From Bacteroidota bacterium (GTDB lineage: Bacteria; Bacteroidota; Bacteroidia; AKYH767-A; JABDAW01), in NCBI GenBank assembly GCA_013288905.1, contig JABDAW010000003.1, positions 1-52,679 of the forward strand: DNA of 52,679 bases, read 5' to 3'. The position numbers and the translations under genes are program-made. The stretch's first letter is position 1. Every line of letters begins with the position of its first letter. The notes beneath the pieces were generated by a model. It was given only the letters and a program-made list of their open reading frames with translations, was not told where the DNA came from and ran no database searches. Positions 2,880-52,437 of the stretch are shown piece by piece.

Positions 2880-3127
2880 CCAATTATGCAAGGGGGAATA
2901 CAAATTATGCAAGGTCGGAAGACAATTATGCAAGGTCGGAAGCAAATTATGCAAGGTCGGAAGGAAAATATGCAAGGTGGGATGGAAAATATGCAAGCGC
3001 GGAAGACAATTATGCAAGGTCGGAAGGACAATATGCAAGGTCGGAAGGACAATATGCAAGGTCGGAAGCAAATTATGCAAGGTCGGAAGGACAATATGCA
3101 AGGTCAGAAGGACAATATGCATCGCCA
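2880..3127. repeat. tandem array A: 12 copies of a 21-bp unit (wATGCAAGGTCGGAAG + 4-5 variable nt)
   Basis: TATGCAAGG recurs at 2885, 2906, 2927, 2948, 2969, 2990, 3011, 3032, 3053, 3074, 3095 and 3116 with no indels. Confidence 0.95.
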
Positions 3128-3302: not shown

Positions 3303-4334
3303 ATGGCTGAAATAGATGAATCAAAATATGAATGCACACAGAACCAACTCTACGTTCTGGGCGGGGTCTATGCTGCAAATCTTACAGCGAATCTTGCCGC
3401 ATTCACTGCCCATAGCCCGCGATTTATTACAGCTTTTATTACTGCCTTAACAGATGCCGTAACTTATGCCGAAGGTCTCCCAAATGATGAGCAGGTAAAG
3501 GTTCCTAAAATGGTGGATAGAGTAGGATTAATCCCTACCGGAAAATTTTCCATCAGCGATTTGAATGCCCTGAAAACTTATCTCCTCAAAGCCTTCCCGA
3601 CGACTTTCGCTATCATGTATAATTCCGCAGGAGCCAATCTGCGAAGAGATGCAGGCAATAATAATTGGGTGCAGATAAAAGCGCTCTTCAAAGCAATGGT
3701 AGATTTTATGGCTGTCCCTGCAAACCTTGCCCAATTGCTTTTGAATGATGTAATGCCCGCCGGTTTCCCCGCAGCAGTCGCCGCTCATCAACTTACATTC
3801 AATAATGATTATACCACTTTCCTTTCAGATAAATCTACCAGCGAACAAACAAGTGCCAAGATTACCGCGAATAATGTAATCAAAGCAATCCTGACCGACA
3901 TAGATGTTAATGGAGTCGTTATTTTTCCTCCCGGAAATACAAAACACGACCTCTTCGTCTTCAGCATCCAAAAAGATATTATTGCCCCAAAAGGCAGTGC
4001 CAGCCTCAAAGTTGGAGTGAAATTAGACGGTGCCTTCACCGTTTTGCCGGATATTCCGGTAAAGATTCAAGCCGCAGGTCAGCCCTCCATCACCGTAAAT
4101 ACGGATGAAGAAGGAATAGCACATTTCCCCGGAATAGACCCCACTAAATATAAGGTAACCATTATCTATCCGGAATTAGTTACTGTGGAATTCAACAAAG
4201 ATGTTGATACCGGAGTCAATGCCAGATCCGAAGTACTCATGGAAACGGCACCCCCGCCACTTGATGAGGAAGATCCCGAAGATGACGAATCTCCTATCAA
4301 AGAAGAAGAGAAAAAAGAAGAGAAAAAACCTTGA
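3303..4334 (+). CDS. hypothetical protein; C-terminal beta-sandwich (carboxypeptidase-regulatory-like) segment and acidic/lysine-rich tail
   Basis: 343-aa ORF with ATG start, followed by a hairpin terminator. No family recognised. Confidence 0.6.
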   Translation: MAEIDESKYECTQNQLYVLGGVYAANLTANLAAFTAHSPRFITAFITALTDAVTYAEGLPNDEQVKVPKMVDRVGLIPTGKFSISDLNALKTYLLKAFPTTFAIMYNSAGANLRRDAGNNNWVQIKALFKAMVDFMAVPANLAQLLLNDVMPAGFPAAVAAHQLTFNNDYTTFLSDKSTSEQTSAKITANNVIKAILTDIDVNGVVIFPPGNTKHDLFVFSIQKDIIAPKGSASLKVGVKLDGAFTVLPDIPVKIQAAGQPSITVNTDEEGIAHFPGIDPTKYKVTIIYPELVTVEFNKDVDTGVNARSEVLMETAPPPLDEEDPEDDESPIKEEEKKEEKKP

Positions 4335-4390: not shown

Positions 4391-4490
4391 TCCTTTTATT
4401 GCATTCCCCAAAAAGGGAATGTCATAAAAGGATGAAGAATAGCATACTAAAAATAGTTATAATTACCCAAATTTATACTCAATTTATTGG

Positions 4491-11731: not shown

Positions 11732-12271
11732 ATGATTTTAGACGATCTTAAAAGGTTATCTCAAGATCATGCTATTCTCCCTTTTAAATGTGGAGATACT
11801 GATCTTGAAAACTTTCTTAACGATGATGCAAAAGCTCATGGTGAAGCCCTTTTATCTGTAACTTATTTAATGGAAAAAGACAATTTAACAATTGCTTTTT
11901 TCAGTCTTTTTAATGACAAGATTGGCTATAATGAAATAAACAGTCATCGAAAATTTGAGAAGATATTTAAAGCCAAGCTACCAAAAAGCAAATGGTTTAA
12001 AAGCTATCCTTCCGTTAAGATTGGAAGGTTTGGAGTTCATCAAAATTATCAAAACGAGGGAGTGGGAGGTAAAATTTTGGATTTTATTAAAGGCTGGTTT
12101 ATTGATAATAATAAAACGGGGTGTATGTATATTACGGTTGATGCTTATAAAAGATCATTGCCTTTTTATTCAAAGAATGGTTTCCTGTTTTTGACGGATG
12201 ATGATGTAGATTCTGATACTCGCTTGATGTATTTTGATTTGACATTATTAAAAAATAGTTTAATAAATTAA
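11732..12271 (+). CDS. GNAT family N-acetyltransferase, TacT/KacT-like toxin candidate
   Basis: FKCGDTDLENFL N-terminal motif and acetyl-CoA site (GVHQNYQNEGVGGKIL), typical of toxin-type GNATs. Preceded by a small ORF. Confidence 0.75.
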   Translation: MILDDLKRLSQDHAILPFKCGDTDLENFLNDDAKAHGEALLSVTYLMEKDNLTIAFFSLFNDKIGYNEINSHRKFEKIFKAKLPKSKWFKSYPSVKIGRFGVHQNYQNEGVGGKILDFIKGWFIDNNKTGCMYITVDAYKRSLPFYSKNGFLFLTDDDVDSDTRLMYFDLTLLKNSLIN

Positions 12272-12290
12272 ATCCTTAAATCCTTCTCCC

Positions 12291-12501
12291 CTTCATGGTG
12301 AAAGCAAGTAGCCCTTCTCCTAAAAAATCCTTTTCTTTGCAAGCAAAATAAAGGATGAGATAAGGTCTTTCCTTGACTTTTTGTACTTTTGCACAAATCA
12401 AACAATTAAATACAATGGCAAAACCAATTAAAGAAACCCCTGTATTGATGGGAGAAGATGCAAAGAGATTCTTAAAGCATAAGAAAGAAAGCAAGGGTAA
12501 G
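12291..12501 (+). repeat. dispersed repeat copy 2
   Basis: See copy 1. Confidence 0.9.
12384..12391 (+). promoter_or_regulatory. -7 promoter box TACTTTTG
   Basis: Same box and same 24-bp spacing to the ATG at 12415 as in copy 1. Confidence 0.5.
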
Positions 12502-12567
12502 AAAATTGACCCGGAAAAACTTAAAAAGATGAGGGAGAGTTATCTTAAATTCAGCCCTAAAAGTTAG
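12415..12567 (+). CDS. 50-aa putative antitoxin, paralog of 11564..11716
   Basis: The first 21 residues are identical to the paralog. Internal ATG of ORF 12373..12567. Stops 9 bp before the PIN gene. Confidence 0.55.
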   Translation: MAKPIKETPVLMGEDAKRFLKHKKESKGKKIDPEKLKKMRESYLKFSPKS

Positions 12568-12576
12568 GTTTGAAAG

Positions 12577-13065
12577 ATGAAAAAACTAAAAATTTATTTA
12601 GATACTTCAATAATTAATTTCTTATTTGCAGATGATACTCCCGACTTCAAAAGAAACACAGAAGACTTCTTTGATAATTATTTAAAGAAAGGAATTTACG
12701 ATTGTCTTGTTTCTGATGTAGTGTTTGATGAGATAAATAGAACGGAGGAGGATGAAAAACGATTGAAACTTTTACAGGTTATAAAAGATTATAATATTCC
12801 TTATGATTCTTTCAATAAGGAGGCAGAACGACTGGCTCACATTTATATCAAAGATGGAGTTATTCCAGTTAAGAAATTTGATGATGCCAGGCATATAGGG
12901 TTGGCAACTACTAACAGTTTTGATATTCTACTATCCTGGAACTTTAAGCATTTGGCAAACGTAAACAAAAGAATAAAAATTAAAATTATTAATGAACGCG
13001 AAGGATATTTCTATCCTCTTGATTTGGTAACACCTATACAACTAATATATGATGAAAACGATTAA
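12577..13065 (+). CDS. PIN-domain protein (VapC-like toxin candidate)
   Basis: IYLDTSI acidic N-terminal motif, DARHIGLAT, SWNFKH. 162 aa. Confidence 0.7.
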   Translation: MKKLKIYLDTSIINFLFADDTPDFKRNTEDFFDNYLKKGIYDCLVSDVVFDEINRTEEDEKRLKLLQVIKDYNIPYDSFNKEAERLAHIYIKDGVIPVKKFDDARHIGLATTNSFDILLSWNFKHLANVNKRIKIKIINEREGYFYPLDLVTPIQLIYDEND

Positions 13066-13249
13066 AGACTATCCGGTATCAAAAGCTCTTGAAGAAGTTT
13101 GGGAAATGAAAGAAAAAGCATCTGAAGCTACTAAAGATTTATCTTTTGAGGAATTACAAAAGCATTACAAAGAAGTAGCAGAAGAATCTGCCAAACTTTT
13201 AAATGCCAAGATTATTCCACTTGCGAATGGCTCTTTTAAATTCGGGTAA
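13049..13249 (+). CDS. hypothetical 66-aa protein
   Basis: ORF overlaps the PIN stop by 17 bp. Helical, charged composition. Coding status unproven. Confidence 0.35.
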   Translation: MMKTIKDYPVSKALEEVWEMKEKASEATKDLSFEELQKHYKEVAEESAKLLNAKIIPLANGSFKFG

Positions 13250-14024: not shown

Positions 14025-14073
14025 GTATTCCCCACAAAAAAGCCCGAACAAAATTCCTTCTGCCCGGGCGTTC

Positions 14074-14101
14074 CCTAATTCCTAATTTTTAATTCCTAAT
14101 T
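14074..14101. repeat. AT-rich dispersed element CCTAATTCCTAATTTTTAATTCCTAATT
   Basis: 28-nt sequence identical to 23569-23596. Related copies at 23236-23270, 23363-23390, 25060-25087 and 42735-42762. Confidence 0.9.
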
Positions 14102-14109
14102 ATTTACCT

Positions 14110-14472
14110 CTATAGCTCCCCTTCCTTCACCTCCACAGCATCATTCCTGCCGCAGGTTTCTTTTAGGATGGTGGAGACAAAATTGGTGTCGTCGGCTACT
14201 TCAAATTCTTCCAAAGTAGTGGCATGTTCCTCGCATAATGGGATGAGATAAATGGTGGAATCTAGGGGTCTGGATTGCAAATCCAGACCAGCGTCGGCAA
14301 TAGGGTCGGTTTTTGTTTTCACTACATAGCCTCCGTCTATTTCAGGATTCCGGCAGCCGGGGACAAGGCACATGCGTACTTGCATGCCGGTAAATTTCTT
14401 CCAGTGGTTTAATTTATTGCCACAGTTGCAGCCTTTTAAGGGGGTCTCTTTGCTTGATTTTAATTTTATCAT
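14110..14472 (-). CDS. small Cys-rich protein (CxC...CxxxGC...CxxH), possible zinc-binding or HNH-like fold
   Basis: 120-aa ORF. The Cys/His pattern resembles small W..W..C.V.GC...HV...PLC..H proteins. Carries an in-frame hairpin module. Confidence 0.5.
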   Translation of the reverse strand: MIKLKSSKETPLKGCNCGNKLNHWKKFTGMQVRMCLVPGCRNPEIDGGYVVKTKTDPIADAGLDLQSRPLDSTIYLIPLCEEHATTLEEFEVADDTNFVSTILKETCGRNDAVEVKEGEL

Positions 14473-14510
14473 ATTATTATTTTATACTTATTTTTCTATT
14501 CCATTCCCCA

Positions 14511-14772
14511 AAAAGACGAAAGTGCAGCCGTATGGTTAGAAACGGCTGCCCTTTCTTTAGAAACGGCTGCACTATCCTTATATATGGCGGAACAATGCAT
14601 GGAAACGGCGGAAGTATCCTTACATTGTTCCGCCGTTTCTTTACAAACGGCGGAACTATCCTTACAAACGGCAGAACAATGCATGGAAACGGCGGAAGTA
14701 TCCATACATAGTTCCGCCGTTTGTAAAGAAACGGCGGAAGAATGCTTGTATCCTTCCGCACTTTCGTCTTTT
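14511..14772. repeat. tandem array B: 11 x 21-bp units (AAACGGCGGAA core, some inverted), bounded by a 15-bp inverted repeat
   Basis: AACGGC at 14541, 14562, 14604, 14646, 14667, 14688 and 14730. Inverted cores at 14627 and 14711. AAAAGACGAAAGTGC at 14511-14525 pairs with GCACTTTCGTCTTTT at 14758-14772. Confidence 0.9.
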
Positions 14773-14792
14773 AGAGACATGAAATGTGGTTT

Positions 14793-15701
14793 TTAATTAA
14801 CTGTAATCTTTAAAACCGCATCAAATCCTTGAGGACCATTGGAAGTAATTATTTGATGCATAAAGTAAACCTCAATATTTGCAGCGAGCCCAGTAACCTG
14901 GGTATGTGCTTGCTTGGTAGGGTCTAACCTTACGAAAGTAATTCCATTATAACTGATCCACCAATCGTGTATTTCGCCCTTAGCTCCCGCTGCTGTCAAA
15001 TCTAAAATTCCACCTACAGGATTGTTCTTCACCGCCCAAGGTTGTTGCTTTCTTGGAGTTACTTTTTTACAGGAAAACCCACCTGACTCTATCCCAAGTT
15101 GAGCAGTGGCAAAGTTCTCATTCGCATACGATTGAAAAAGAAATTTCAACCCTTCCATACCATTATTAAGAGCAGTCCAGGCAGCTTGTTCGCCACCGGC
15201 TTCAGAGTTGCCATAAGCAGTCGCCAGCAGTCCTAAAGCCGTAATAGTGGCTCCGGGAACAGATACATAAGTAGATACGGCAGCCAGGGCAAGGGCATCT
15301 TTTGCCTGTTTCGTTTTGTCTGCCTTAGAGCCTTTCCATTTAAAGACGGCGATGTACTTTCTTTGCATGGTAGGCATGCTGAAAAGGATGATCTGCCCGT
15401 TAAACTGGGTGACATCTACCCCTCTGAAATTCAATCTTTCCAAATCATAGGAACTGATATTATAGATTTCCACAGTTTCGTCCATGGCATCATAGAGGTT
15501 GTTTTTGAAACGCTCATAGCCTGCCAAAATAAAATTTATCACCCAAAATAAAGGACTCAAGAAGCGCGATGGTGATCTCTCGGCTTCTTCCTCATCAGGA
15601 CCAAATTCGCGAATGTGTTGGTTCTCCTGCGCTGTTTCAGCATACCCTCTGCTGATTTTTTCCTTGTAGGATTCTTTTTGTTTTACAAAATTTAATTTCA
15701 T
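14793..15701 (-). CDS. hypothetical protein (302 aa)
   Basis: Long ORF with ATG start. No signal peptide. Central Ala/Gly-rich hydrophobic stretch. No family recognised. Confidence 0.6.
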   Translation of the reverse strand: MKLNFVKQKESYKEKISRGYAETAQENQHIREFGPDEEEAERSPSRFLSPLFWVINFILAGYERFKNNLYDAMDETVEIYNISSYDLERLNFRGVDVTQFNGQIILFSMPTMQRKYIAVFKWKGSKADKTKQAKDALALAAVSTYVSVPGATITALGLLATAYGNSEAGGEQAAWTALNNGMEGLKFLFQSYANENFATAQLGIESGGFSCKKVTPRKQQPWAVKNNPVGGILDLTAAGAKGEIHDWWISYNGITFVRLDPTKQAHTQVTGLAANIEVYFMHQIITSNGPQGFDAVLKITVN

Positions 15702-16841: not shown

Positions 16842-16889
16842 TGATGTTGAATCCCTTCAATTAAAAACATACTAAAGCATTGATTCCAG

Positions 16890-16974
16890 CGGAGAGATGG
16901 GGATTCGCCCCCCCGGACCTGTTACAGTCAACGGTTTTCGAGACCGCCACATTAAACCACTCTGCCATCTCTCC
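16890..16974 (-). tRNA. tRNA-Ser (anticodon CGA), non-canonical T-loop
   Basis: The reverse complement folds as a type-II tRNA. Acceptor GGAGAGA/TCTCTCC, anticodon loop CTCGAAA, long variable arm. T-loop reads GGCGAAT instead of TTCRANY. Confidence 0.75.
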
Positions 16975-23141: not shown

Positions 23142-23264
23142 AGTTTTTCTTTCACCGCCGCCAAATCGGGTAATTTTTGCACTGTTCACTATTCACTGTC
23201 TGTGTTTGTCCTAACCTGAAATAAATTTGCCAAACGTAATTCCTGATTTGTAATTTTTAATTCC

Positions 23265-23272
23265 TAATTTCG
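23265..23272 (+). promoter_or_regulatory. -7-like box TAATTTCG
   Basis: One-mismatch variant of TAnnTTTG, 11 nt upstream of tRNA-Arg. Confidence 0.35.
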
Positions 23273-23282
23273 CCCCCGCATT

Positions 23283-23356
23283 GGACCCGTAGTTCAACTG
23301 GATAGAATGACAGATTTCGGCTCTGTTGGTTGGGGGTTCGAATCCCTCCGGGTTCA
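23283..23356 (+). tRNA. tRNA-Arg (anticodon TCG)
   Basis: 74-nt cloverleaf. Acceptor GGACCCG/CGGGTTC, anticodon stem ACAGA/TCTGT with loop TTTCGGC, T-loop TTCGAAT. Confidence 0.85.
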
Positions 23357-23395
23357 CAAATCAATTAGGAATTAGGAATTAAAAATTAGGGCTTA

Positions 23396-23533: not shown

Positions 23534-23599
23534 ATAGCCAAAATTAGGAATTAAGTTGTTATATTATTCCTAATTCCTAATTTTTAATTCCTAATTGAC

Positions 23600-24994: not shown

Positions 24995-25144
24995 AATTTT
25001 GTACAATTTGTCATACATACATTCTGAATGATTTCCTACTTTCGCCCCATGCTATATTCAATTAAGAATTAGGAATTATGAATTACGATGCTTGGGGTAT
25101 TGATTAATAAAAGGAGATGGGGGTATTTTGAAAAATAGTAAACT

Positions 25145-28819: not shown

Positions 28820-28848
28820 TGAATTTCATTAAAAGGTGTATCTTTTGC

Positions 28849-29085
28849 TCCGAAAACTGTTTCTATCGTTCCGAAAGCTGTTTCTATTGTTCCGAAAGCT
28901 GTTTCTATCGTTCCGAAAGCTGTTTCTATCGTTCCAATAGCTGTTTCTATTACTCCGAAAGATGTTTCTTCTGCTCCAAAAGATGTTTCTTCTGCTCCAA
29001 AAGATGCATCTTTTACTCCAAAAGATGCATCTTTTACTCCAATAGAAGCATCTTTTGGAACGATAGAAGCATCTTTTGCTCTTGA
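28849..29085. repeat. tandem array C: about 11 x 21-bp units drifting from TCCGAAAGCTGTTTCTATCGT to TCCAAAAGATGCATCTTTTAC
   Basis: TCCGAAA/TCCAAAA recurs at 28849, 28870, 28891, 28912, 28933, 28954, 28975, 28996, 29017 and 29038, with a degenerate unit at 29059. Confidence 0.9.
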
Positions 29086-42731: not shown

Positions 42732-42827
42732 GTCAATTAGGAATTACGAATTAGGAATTAGGATGTGGGCATGACTCATAATTTATAATTCCTTTCAGCG
42801 TTGAATCCTCCATAAATAATTAATTCT

Positions 42828-44516: not shown

Positions 44517-44578
44517 AAGGCTATTTTGAATCAAATTAAAACGGTGAAAGTTAATATCGTAAGCAAGATTTACTTTAT

Positions 44579-44790
44579 AAATACCTCCGCTGATGCCGTA
44601 ATTACCTCCGCAAATTCTGTCAATACCTCCGCTGATGGCAAAAATACCTCCGCAATTCCCGTCAATACCTCCGCTGATGCCAAGAATACCTCCGCAATTC
44701 CCGTCAATACCTCCGCTGATGCCAAAAATACCTCCGCAATTCCCGTCAATACCCTCCGTTGATGCCGAAAATACCTCCGCTAATTCAATC
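44579..44790. repeat. tandem array D: 10 x 21-bp units (AATACCTCCGC core) in a 42-bp alternating pattern
   Basis: ACCTCC at 44583, 44604, 44625, 44646, 44667, 44688, 44709, 44730, 44751 and 44773. A 1-nt insertion sits in the ninth unit. Confidence 0.9.
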
Positions 44791-52201: not shown

Positions 52202-52437
52202 ACCAGTTTGAACTGCAAAGAGTTTAGTTTGAACTGTGCGGGGACCAGTTTGAGCTGGTAGGTATTTAGTTTGAACTGGTGAGGGACCAATTTGAACTGG
52301 GACGGATATATTTTGAACTGGGACGGGTATTATTTGAACTGGAGGTGTACCAGTTTGAACTGGGAGGTGTACCAGTTTGAACTGGGACGGATATTGTTTG
52401 AACTGCTGACAAAATTGTTTTAACTGGAAGGTGGATG
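52202..52437. repeat. tandem array E: 11 x 21-bp units with core (CCAG)TTTGAACTGG
   Basis: TTTGAACT recurs at 52207, 52228, 52249, 52270, 52291, 52312, 52333, 52354, 52376, 52397 and 52418. One 1-nt insertion. Confidence 0.9.

Follow-up and report, generated by a model that had tools for sequence, protein, structure and literature searches.

A repeat array of 262 bp, bounded by terminal inverted repeats (TIRs), lies between two orphan genes in a Bacteroidota contig. It is, judging from its sequence and that of its homologues, an inherited component of the gene module at this locus and not a MITE insertion, because homologous loci share its termini and scaffold motifs and no empty site was found. 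It probably serves as the nucleic-acid partner of the neighbouring 302-aa gene, and would form the non-coding third component of an orphan module that consists of the 302-aa protein, the array and, usually, a 120-aa protein. As to how it might act, we tentatively favour a helically phased, multivalent protein-binding DNA array, in the manner of an iteron, centromere or operator.

The array, here called array B, is one of five arrays with a 21-bp period (A to E) in the window, that is, the whole stretch of 52,679 nucleotides that was analysed. Numbers beginning with L are our labels for loci and contigs. The features of the locus, by position in the window, are as follows.

14042-14069, minus strand: intrinsic-terminator-like hairpin after the 120-aa gene, closing the putative three-part operon
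14110-14472, minus strand: 120-aa Cys/His-rich orphan gene, with C15, C17, H23, C35, C40, C80, H83 and C107 invariant
14478-14510, minus strand: 33-nt tail between TIR and start codon of the 120-aa gene, shared with the solo copies (L021/L022) and recognisable beside P0020, in its flank
14496-14780, minus strand: 94-aa ATG ORF with heptads x-A-V-[C/S]-K-[D/H]-x, covering the array; probably not a conserved coding gene
14511-14525, no strand: TIR arm AAAAGACGAAAGTGC, perfect over 15 bp, on the side of the 120-aa gene
14518-14769, no strand: array of 12 units of 21 bp in strict register; relative to the plus strand, nine are forward and three inverted; core AAACGGCGGAA
14562-14729, no strand: 84-bp (4 x 21) higher-order repeat in two copies, 14562-14645 and 14646-14729, identical at 72 of 84 positions
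14758-14772, no strand: TIR arm GCACTTTCGTCTTTT, the exact complement of the other arm, on the side of the 302-aa gene
14793-15701, minus strand: 302-aa orphan gene, invariant partner of the array; its product has a variable N-terminal part, a confident helical bundle and a C-terminal FN3-like beta-sandwich

Architecture of array B

Tandem Repeats Finder returned periods of 21, 42 and 84 bp for array B, the longest with 2.3 copies and an 87% match, so the 84-bp higher-order repeat described in an earlier note on this DNA was recovered, as were the perfect 15-bp inverted termini. The two arms are 232 bp apart, terminal complementarity reaches 28 nt at 82%, and AAAAGACGAAAGTGC and its complement are the sole two copies in the window when two mismatches are allowed. 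Significant TIRs occur only in array B among the five arrays, in agreement with the earlier view that it alone has clean termini.

Units succeed one another in the order F F F F F R F F F R F R (F, forward; R, inverted). The core is perfect in six of them (14603+, 14628-, 14645+, 14687+, 14712- and 14729+) and carries a single mismatch in a seventh (14666+), with 0.73 matches expected by chance. The remaining five are degenerate (for example AAACGGCTGCC and GAAAGTGCAGCC), and the claim that eleven units carry the core was therefore somewhat generous. The inverted cores reported near 14625 and 14709 are present in the units at 14623 and 14707, a third inverted unit ends the array at 14749, and both members of the internal 12-bp inverted repeat were located (GGCGGAACAATG at 14586 and CATTGTTCCGCC at 14623). 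A CRISPR array was rejected, as the units are contiguous and have no unique spacers.

Four further arrays with a 21-bp period, different in sequence from array B, are present in the window, and array B has solo copies elsewhere. The motif CGGA(A/G)G recurs in arrays A to D, with a looser variant in array E (ACGGAT/GGCGGG). The idea of one genome-specific core common to all arrays of a genome was nevertheless discarded, since the array pairs in L005, L015 and L021 share nothing.

Flanking genes and putative operon

Both flanking genes are on the minus strand, as expected from the description of the array as lying between two same-strand orphan genes, and the distance from the array end to the ATG of the Cys/His-rich 120-aa gene is 38 nt, as had been stated. 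On the other side, 12 nt separate the stop codon of the 302-aa gene from the start of the ORF that covers the array. From the 302-aa stop to the 120-aa ATG, nothing resembles a terminator except the first hairpin of the array itself (14759-14734), which has a poor T tail; the terminator after the 120-aa gene is convincing. The Bacteroidetes-type promoter motif TAnnTTTG was absent from both strands of 14400-14900.

Sequence searches of Pfam, NCBIfam, PHROGs, PADLOC and the PDB gave nothing significant for the 302-, 120- or 94-aa products, and family and fold searches recognised no DNA-binding domain in either the 302-aa or the 120-aa neighbour. The AlphaFold model of the 302-aa protein (pLDDT 67.5) matched only FN3 domains in the PDB and BFVD, and the model of the 120-aa protein was unusable (pLDDT 40.6). 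A membrane anchor in the 302-aa protein was considered and dropped, as its hydrophobic helix is not kept in homologues. The 120-aa gene accompanies the module in eight of the 11 loci with DNA, as well as in fragment L020, in which the 302-aa side is off the contig, and three array loci have no 120-aa gene. Toxin-antitoxin-like genes lie beside the module in the window, and a Septu-type defence ATPase lies beside it in L009. A Pfam scan of 41 window ORFs (the window has 207 ORFs of at least 50 aa) found no transposase or recombinase, nor a ParA or Rep partner, and the setting is chromosomal, in a housekeeping context.

Occupancy and sequence turnover at homologous loci

In 11 of 11 distinct loci with DNA, all from uncultured freshwater and soil Bacteroidota, a 21-bp array directly follows the 302-aa homologue, so the check for an empty site proposed in the earlier note found none. 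Over the conserved C-terminal 200 aa, the homologues are 39-58% identical to the window protein. Four further contigs, represented by gene calls without DNA, have a 330-460 bp gap or an antisense ORF at the array position. Termini and scaffold are homologous among the arrays, with GACGAA / TTCGTC ends and ATGTAAGGAT, and GTTTCTAACCAT is common to the window and L020.

The core sequences, by contrast with this scaffold, differ from locus to locus. Core-to-core spacing is 21 bp or a multiple of it in about 150 intervals, with three exceptions, and cores in both orientations keep one register. Arrays have 6-14 units, and the near-identical contig L002 lacks exactly one 84-bp copy. TIRs with compensatory changes are found in six loci (window, L021, L007, L011, L016 and L005), where complementarity is kept at all 15 pairs via changes on both sides, although the arms were picked as inverted repeats and the percentage paired is thus given by construction; half of the homologous arrays have no significant TIRs. 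In the L014-L017 group, hairpin elements and 220-290 nt lie between the 302-aa gene and the array. Cores and proteins do not change together: L014 and L015 have 302-aa proteins that are 86-96% identical and units that are only about 52% alike, whereas L015 and L016 have similar units and N-terminal parts that are only 60% identical, and no co-variation of cores with the 302-aa N-terminal part or with the 120-aa protein was seen across loci. On the reading we favour, evolution of the array is concerted, with cores being replaced, units flipping and 42- and 84-bp higher-order units arising, and its length changes in steps of whole repeat blocks.

Two other contexts, L021/L022 and the P0020 contig, have near-identical solo copies complete with TIRs. 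These adjoin unrelated genes (for example an NTP_transf_2 gene, or PNP_UDP_1 on one side and SIR2_2 on the other), and array B-type contexts in all data searched number three. The search for further copies of the termini thus gave a divided answer, with none elsewhere in the window, where array B has no second copy in 52.7 kb, and the same termini in two contexts on other contigs. The MITE-like look pointed out earlier holds for the element as such, which is discrete, small (262 bp), bounded by perfect 15-bp TIRs and copied elsewhere, but not for an insertion between the two genes. In addition to the lack of an empty site, neither the window copy nor that of L021 is bordered by a direct repeat that could be a target-site duplication, and homology between the window and L021 stops at the TIR on the 302-aa side and runs 33 nt past the other TIR. 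A blastn search of phage and plasmid collections with the array gave no match, and two matches of a pattern scan of IMG/VR (L023 and L024) were set aside as an unrelated coding heptad repeat in a large ORF of a GC-richer phage.

A selfish BOX/MITE-type composite repeat, without function in the module, copied elsewhere by some mechanism and palindromic only as a by-product of array growth, would account for the solo copies between unrelated genes, for the many other 21-bp arrays in these genomes and for cores that do not track the neighbouring proteins; TIRs, variable tandem unit number, ORFs on both strands and strong folding are also seen in pneumococcal BOX elements (PMC3049150). We nevertheless hold it to be unlikely. 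Occupancy of all 11 homologous loci despite deep divergence of the flanking genes, together with homologous termini, argues for selective retention and vertical descent, and the missing target-site duplication, the 33-nt overrun of homology, the single copy in 52.7 kb and the lack of an IS or transposase with matching ends among the 41 ORFs scanned all speak against such an element.

Perfect 15-bp inverted repeats 232 bp apart and 38 nt upstream of a gene also have the geometry typical of Bacteroidetes invertons (PMC11602134), internal units do occur in both orientations, and in two of five assemblies the contig breaks off within the array. A recombinase that flips the 262-bp segment and so switches the downstream 120-aa gene on or off is however very improbable, given that all five contigs (three that span the array and two that break inside it) have one orientation, that TAnnTTTG is absent inside and beside the array on either strand, that the 41 ORFs scanned include no recombinase and that significant TIRs are missing from half of the homologous arrays.

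Self-complementarity, DNA and RNA

Folding of 14511-14772, which the earlier note had proposed, revealed very strong self-complementarity, with z = -13.6 on the gene-sense strand (MFE -144.5 kcal/mol) and -10.7 on the other. The module arrays are all strongly self-complementary (z of -5 to -13 in nine loci, weaker in L008), and the signal was absent from window arrays A and D and from arrays L015b and L005x. Neither strand is consistently more stable, the sense strand being ahead in five loci and the antisense strand in four. Short palindromes recur once per unit or once per two units in most homologues: in the arrays of four loci (3.3 kb) ATGTnnACAT is found 13 times, versus 4 times in 128 kb outside them, and ATCCAnTGGAT, TGTGnCACA, ACAAnTTGT and TCTTTAAAGA recur as well. 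The units of the window array itself contain no short palindrome, and its only inverted pairs are of cores with 6 or 14 nt between them. Read from the sequence, its closing stem reaches 28 nt via G-U pairs, on the sense strand only, and a 3'-terminal 8-bp hairpin is kept in L020 with a different stem (GCAGCCGT/ACGGCTGC versus GCCGAGCA/TGCTCGGC) and related loops. Rfam left the array unmatched at the gathering threshold, its only match in the window being one tRNA (23283-23356). The earlier suggestion of one large structured RNA or DNA element stays live.

Cores in both orientations that keep one register, and folding that prefers neither strand, fit recognition of duplex DNA. The double-stranded array could present a platform of dyad-symmetric sites to a dimeric protein, 21 bp being close to two helical turns, and the module proteins next to it would be the first candidate binders. 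Counting against such a platform are the lack of a recognisable DNA-binding domain, of ParA/Rep, of core-protein co-variation and of short palindromes in the window units, as well as the chromosomal setting. Moreover, with four other arrays in the window and solo copies elsewhere, not every array can be a site of the module protein, and, as RNA palindromes spaced at 21 nt can pair between neighbouring units, dyad symmetry is compatible with an RNA function.

The close rival to the DNA platform, which we regard as somewhat unlikely when taken as a whole, is a structured intercistronic RNA, transcribed within the 302-aa/120-aa operon and folded into multiple hairpins that are closed by the TIR stem. 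It could act as an element for processing, stability or uncoupling of translation (compare REP/BIME, Correia and BOX), or bind a module protein as its multivalent RNA partner or sponge (compare ToxI and CsrB). The tight spacing of 12 and 38 nt, the absence of both a promoter motif and, apart from the array's own poor first hairpin, a terminator before the 120-aa gene, the low MFE and z-score of the sense strand, the sense-specific extension of the closing stem, the 3'-terminal hairpin shared with L020 and the retention of self-complementarity while the sequence turns over are all consistent with it. Against it stand the lack of a consistent strand advantage across loci and a fold topology that varies, some loci having long inverted-unit hairpins and others only direct repeats. 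In RNA an inverted core is not equivalent to a forward one, yet both keep the register; array and 302-aa gene lie apart in L014-L017; and Rfam has no match. A sponge with CsrA-type GGA loops was rejected, for GGA is frequent in several arrays but inconsistent in strand, and the motif was chosen post hoc. Because the array lies within the putative operon transcript, the DNA platform we favour would also be expected to fold into a very stable RNA, which could in turn tune how strongly the downstream gene is expressed.

Coding potential

Coding by the 94-aa ORF is poorly supported. If real, the product would be a Cys/Asp/His-rich heptad peptide with alternating [C/S]-x-D and [C/S]-x-H that works with both neighbours. 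An ATG lies at most 10 nt from the array start in six of 10 loci compared, and also in L025; the frame shared across loci has similar N-termini (M-x-x-Q-[S/T]-N, and RIEQxV in L007 and L025) and keeps the C/S-x-D/H pattern; the window, L020 and L007 agree in an S-F tail and in the position of the stop; every period is divisible by three; and in the window this frame ranks first of all six for codon usage. We consider a small protein improbable all the same. The ORF is broken or lacks its ATG in five of the 10 homologous arrays whose start can be judged, L009 being startless with two in-frame TGA codons, L011 having one TGA and L016 a frameshift, and the ATG position reading ATA in L007 and ATC in L021. 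Variation within arrays by codon position (89/80/95) has no third-position (wobble) excess, third codon positions carry the invariant bases of the palindromes while the first two positions are variable, TGA included, and between the window and L021 about six codon changes are synonymous and 11 non-synonymous (counted by eye). Ser replaces Cys throughout L020, and a pair of indels in L014 keeps the TGTACA palindrome and alters the peptide. Codon-usage log-odds are at or below zero in most loci, in a test that is biased against Cys/His-rich peptides, and, with five of six frames open, an open frame is weak evidence.

Gene callers picked the antisense strand or nothing in four relatives, and a phmmer search with the 94-aa ORF of 1.84 billion representative proteins returned only P0019 and P0020 as true relatives; the other matches were generic coiled-coil or low-complexity heptads (an MCP signalling domain, a YadA stalk and eukaryote-like minisatellite translations). 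Two further coding schemes were rejected, namely stop read-through that would join the ORF with the 302-aa gene, the two being in frame only in the window and not in L009, L007 or L011, and selenocysteine or recoded TGA in L009 and L011, where the flanking genes read normally under table 11.

Discussion

If the array is the functional partner of the flanking orphan proteins, it would represent a new system of protein and repeat array in poorly studied Bacteroidota. In either case, an intergenic minisatellite that persists at one locus over deep divergence as its sequence turns over is a clear case of a pattern which separates selection on architecture from selection on sequence. In practical terms, gene callers turn such arrays into spurious heptad "proteins" on either strand.

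Among known repeats, BOX elements (boxA - boxB(n) - boxC) resemble array B in having partly complementary end modules around variable tandem internal units whose length is a multiple of three, in being intergenic, in folding strongly if transcribed and in including large copies with ORFs on both strands. Array B accordingly has TIRs, 6-14 units across loci and a difference of one 84-bp block between near-identical contigs. The boxB unit is 45 bp, and BOX elements number about a hundred per genome at unrelated sites, unlike array B, which is found once in 52.7 kb, goes with a single gene family across deep divergence and has its core replaced in each lineage. REP/BIME and Correia elements share with it palindromic units of alternating orientation and a place in transcribed intergenic regions of operons, but they are genome-wide, follow one consensus, have no strict tandem period and are not bound to one gene family. 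BOX elements are described as extensively proliferated, probably parasitic and able to alter the expression of neighbouring genes, and REP/BIME and Correia elements as RNA stabilisers, attenuators or RNase III sites (PMC3049150).

In its logic the reading we favour resembles plasmid centromeres and iterons, whose units are in tandem with a phase of about two or four helical turns and each contain a dyad-symmetric subsite, which stand immediately beside a conserved gene of about 300 codons and whose site sequence diverges fast between relatives. In F, the 12 sopC units of 43 bp each contain a palindrome and follow sopB directly, parS of P1 lies after parB, and the iterons of R6K and pPS10 are 22 bp long. 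The strict 21-bp spacing and the per-unit palindromes of most homologues would be the corresponding putative binding sites. The differences are that no ParB, Rep or HTH domain is detectable, that neither neighbour has a Rep, ParB or ParR-type domain, that there is no ParA partner among the ORFs scanned, that the array is chromosomal and that sites and proteins do not visibly co-vary.

Type III toxin-antitoxin loci (ToxI, CptI, TenpI) likewise have a tandem array directly upstream of a small protein gene, about five units if the 42-nt higher-order unit is counted, fast repeat divergence and a defence-island neighbourhood (PMC3401426). They differ in that the units of array B are of mixed orientation, no terminator stands between array and gene in the window, the 120-aa protein matches no ToxN, AbiQ, CptN or TenpN model (Pfam, PADLOC) and the array persists in three loci without the 120-aa gene. 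The VIPR systems also place a protein gene beside a tandem-repeat non-coding RNA with a conserved tail, the vrRNA (bioRxiv 10.64898/2026.04.26.720920). These vrRNAs consist of 9-16 YNNGG pentamers in which NN varies between units, and are partnered by a RAMP protein, whereas array B has 21-nt units that are homogenised within the array, and no RAMP protein.

It is possible, if doubtful, that the 302-aa gene and the array, usually with the Cys/His-rich gene, make up an undescribed gene-plus-repeat system of defence and variable islands, in which the array, as DNA platform or as RNA, would be the obligatory partner. Solo arrays elsewhere would then be additional sites or decoys, and such a system might follow the logic of ParB-parS, Rep-iteron, ToxN-ToxI or Cas-CRISPR pairs while being unrelated to all of them.

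The array as an inherited part of a gene module

Array B lies, as the earlier note had described, between two orphan genes of the same strand, here the minus strand, 38 bp upstream of the Cys-rich ORF. The features around it are as follows.

Features in and around array B
15701..14793, minus strand: 302-aa ORF, its stop 12 nt before array B
14780..14496: 94-aa ATG ORF spanning array B, with heptads such as SAVCKDS, SAVSMHC and AEQCKDT
14511-14525: terminal inverted repeat (TIR) arm AAAAGACGAAAGTGC, with its exact complement at 14758-14772
14472..14110, minus strand: 120-aa Cys-rich ORF, its ATG 38 nt past the end of array B
14069-14042: good terminator-like hairpin, after the 120-aa gene
14074-14101, 23235-23269, 23363-23390, 23542-23596, 25060-25087, 42735-42762: AATTAGG repeats

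A 21-bp-period array directly follows the stop codon of the 302-aa homologue in all 11 distinct loci with DNA at that position (the window and the contigs or contig groups L009, L007/L012, L011, L014, L015, L016, L017, L005/L006/L010, L008/L013 and L025-27), and a 120-aa homologue follows the array in 8 of them. In a twelfth locus, the fragment L020, an array end precedes the 120-aa gene, and four further contigs, judged by gene calls alone, have a 330-460 bp gap or an antisense ORF at the array position. Since the 302-aa homologues are only 39-58% identical to the window protein over the conserved 200 C-terminal residues, occupation of 11/11 sites argues for retention of the array. No empty-site allele of the kind expected from the MITE-like insertion proposed earlier was found among them, and on sequence comparison we take the array to be an inherited part of the gene module, not an insertion.

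The 302-aa family is very small (13 clusters among 5.8 billion proteins). Among about 186,000 species genomes it occurs in two, each a MAG of an uncultured Bacteroidetes member, and nine metagenome loci also carry it. In the predicted structure the N-terminal third is variable and poorly modelled, residues 115-215 form a confident helical bundle (pLDDT above 90) and the C-terminus is an FN3-like sandwich, for which fold searches return FN3 domains only. Eight Cys/His residues are invariant in the 120-aa family, for which searches detected no relatives and the structure model was unusable. A longer C run in contig L003 (~1530-1560, window ~14440) frameshifts this gene, called there as 91 aa; the run is a variable tract or else a homopolymer error. 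The gene that comes next in L009 encodes a PtuA-type (Septu) ATPase.

With PBP2, an aminoacyl-tRNA synthetase, MeaB and six T9SS sorting domain genes, the window reads as ordinary Bacteroidota chromosome; the surroundings of array B are island-like, with PIN- and GNAT-type genes and a tRNA-Ser (16889-16974). At 11732-13249 the GNAT-type and PIN-type genes are each paired with a small ORF, and these toxin-antitoxin-like pairs bracket the module together with the tRNA-Ser, which suggests a variable island. AATTAGG heptamer repeats (about 4 copies each, often with a central AATTAAA) occupy six or more intergenic sites, with 19 matches against about 1 expected; one separates the 120-aa gene from its terminator, and tRNA-Arg is flanked by several.

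Conserved architecture, changing sequence

Tandem Repeats Finder gave periods of 21, 42 and 84 bp for array B, the last with 2.3 copies at 87% match. The earlier count of eleven units carrying the core held only in part: the 21-bp register starting at 14518 contains twelve units, six with a perfect core AAACGGCGGAA, a seventh with one mismatch (chance expectation for the window, 0.73 matches) and five that are degenerate. The inverted units placed at about 14625 and 14709 were found at 14623 and 14707, and a third at 14749, so that the orientations read F F F F F R F F F R F R. The claimed 84-bp higher-order repeat was borne out by 72/84 identity between its segments, and the 15-bp TIRs are indeed perfect; terminal complementarity reaches 28 nt at 82%, and no further copy of either arm occurs in the window with up to 2 mismatches allowed. 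Array B is also, as proposed, the only window array with clean termini, TIRs being absent from the four others (A, C, D and E).

Across about 150 core-to-core intervals from 20 arrays, cores are spaced by 21 bp or multiples thereof, with three exceptions (20, 22 and 43 bp). All module arrays fold much more stably than dinucleotide shuffles (z -5 to -13 in nine loci, weaker in L008); no such signal was found in window arrays A and D or in L015b and L005x, further arrays on the compared contigs. Dyad symmetry arises from inverted units in the window, L009, L011, L020 and L025, and in the remaining loci from one short palindrome per unit. The arrays of L009, L011, L025 and L007 contain 13 copies of ATGTnnACAT in 3.3 kb, versus 4 in 128 kb outside; others are ATCCAnTGGAT (L016 and L015), TGTGnCACA (L005), ACAAnTTGT (L014) and TCTTTAAAGA (L008). 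TIRs reach significance in the window and in L007 (22 nt), L011 (27 nt, one mismatch), L016 and L005; they are marginal in L009 and absent from L014, L015, L017 and L008. In the TIR pairs of six loci, 15/15 were changed on both sides and 92% of cells were paired, a count of compensatory turnover rather than a discovery of structure, because the arms were chosen as inverted repeats. It is architecture that the arrays conserve.

The arrays are homologous between loci though their unit sequences differ. The left end ..AAAAGACGAAA.. and right end ..TTTCGTCTTTTTGGGG.. are recognisable in L009, L011, L007, L020, L021 and L025, and scaffold motifs are common to arrays (e.g. ATGTAAGGAT and CATTGT; GTTTCTAACCAT is common with L020); between these motifs, cores of 7-11 nt are replaced together in all units of one array. 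Array divergence outpaces gene divergence: flanking proteins of L014 and L015 are 86-96% identical and the units only about 52% alike, and L015 and L016 (88% identical) still have one unit in common. Core divergence is tracked by neither the 302-aa nor the 120-aa protein. Array length shifts by blocks, the otherwise identical contig L002 lacking exactly 84 bp, one higher-order unit, although assembly collapse may be the cause; two other assemblies end inside array B.

Solo copies and other repeats

Two predicted proteins, P0019 and P0020, were called as ORFs on near-identical copies of array B that occur in other contexts and lack the 302-aa and 120-aa genes beside them. The copy in L021/L022 is flanked by PNP_UDP_1 and SIR2_2 genes, and that in a third contig adjoins an NTP_transf_2 gene. 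Window 14478-14772 aligns to L021 (blastn, 140 nt at 91% identity); homology stops at the TIR on the 302-aa side and continues past the opposite TIR by 33 nt, as far as the 120-aa start codon, a tail also present in the P0020 flank. In the alignment to L021, neither a target-site duplication nor a remnant of the two genes was seen. P0020 was obtained from the sample that also yielded P0002, which at 84% identity is the closest module homologue. Together, the solo copies, the overrun and the absence of a duplication indicate that the element can be duplicated or left behind; they did not arise by clean TIR-to-TIR transposition, and the MITE-like reading fails on the missing duplication as well as on the empty site.

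A second 21-bp array, AGGCAAATGAAATTTTCAAGT, with 5 copies and perfect 18-bp inverted ends, occupies 3640-3790 of L021, immediately past the solo copy and about 110 bp upstream of the SIR2_2 gene. L021 (3175-3224) and the window (4391-4436, just after gene 3303-4334) share a 50-nt hairpin element (82% identity) that looks like a REP-like dispersed repeat of the lineage.

The window's four other strict 21-bp arrays (2882-3121, 28831-29081, 44578-44786 and 52202-52433) have units that all differ. T9SS sorting domain (Por_Secre_tail) genes begin 90-240 bp downstream of arrays A, C and D, and downstream of array E there is a gene of the amino-acid-kinase family; a CGGA(A/G)-type motif recurs in arrays A-D, B included, with a looser variant, ACGGAT/GGCGGG, in E. 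Among the relatives, the Cys-rich gene of L015 is followed at 2288-2544 by 12 copies of a 21-bp repeat, and at 3076-3415 in L005 a 42-bp repeat in 8 copies falls within an ORF called as 340 aa. Between the 302-aa homologue and the array, L014 (~985-1145) and L017 (~3690-3835) carry a ~160-bp palindromic element with ~20-bp inverted ends (GAGCCACAGATTCACAGAT ... ATCTGTGAATCTGTGGCT) that resembles a MITE or a large terminator. In L008 a repeat centred on the palindrome AAATCTGACAGATTT is present four times at ~60-bp intervals (1800-2060), downstream of the array. The 11-mer TTCCGCCGTTT at 21-bp spacing in two IMG/VR contigs (L023 10940-11010, L024 1045-1090) was set aside: it lies inside a long ORF in a GC-richer genome and is a genuine coding heptad repeat unrelated to array B.

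Coding potential

That array B encodes the 94-aa micro-protein seems improbable. In 6/10 loci compared, plus L025, an ATG lies no more than 10 nt from the array start, and one frame shared across loci has similar N-termini, heptads that alternate between [C/S]-x-D and [C/S]-x-H, and an S-F tail and stop position that coincide in three loci. However, 5/6 frames are open across the array, and therefore the openness of this one means little. In L009 the shared frame lacks a start and contains two TGA codons; in L011 it contains one TGA, and in L016 it is frameshifted. ATG is replaced by ATA in L007 and ATC in L021, and in four relatives gene callers took the antisense strand or nothing. Unit variation over codon positions is 89/80/95, and of the codon changes between the window and L021 copies, counted by eye, about 6 are synonymous and 11 non-synonymous. 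L020 has Ser for Cys throughout, and a pair of indels in L014 alters the peptide while preserving the TGTACA palindrome. In ATGTnnACAT the invariant A's fall on third codon positions and the free dinucleotide on first and second, TGA included, the opposite of coding constraint. HMMER searches of 1.84 billion representative proteins gave P0019 and P0020 as the only true relatives.

Possible function and known systems

The array is conserved, non-coding-looking, strictly phased, dyad-symmetric and tied to one gene family, and might serve as a multivalent binding platform. We tentatively favour duplex DNA as the form that would be bound: 21 bp corresponds to two helical turns, cores in either orientation keep one register, short palindromes of specific sequence are conserved between loci, and strand bias is absent. 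The suggestion of one large structured RNA or DNA element at 14511-14772 held as regards strong self-complementarity, but neither strand had a consistent advantage, stability favouring the sense strand in five loci and the antisense strand in four. The close rival, rated somewhat less likely, is a structured intercistronic RNA: in the window, transcription of array B as part of the operon is almost certain, and on the sense strand its closing stem is extended by G-U pairs. The sole terminator-like site between the stop of the 302-aa ORF and the start codon of the 120-aa ORF is the first hairpin of array B (14759-14734), with a poor T tail.

As a MITE, type III toxin-antitoxin system, CRISPR, inverton or VIPR, array B fails the defining tests of each, and we give an inverton hardly any credence. 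In anatomy it comes closest to the pneumococcal BOX elements, in which end modules enclose tandem units and ORFs occur on both strands (PMC3049150). We think it improbable, all the same, that array B is a selfish BOX-like repeat; that the array and its genes form a new gene-repeat system is a possibility we raise with some doubt. The gene-plus-array logic of the module is closest to the pairings sopB-sopC, parB-parS and Rep-iteron.
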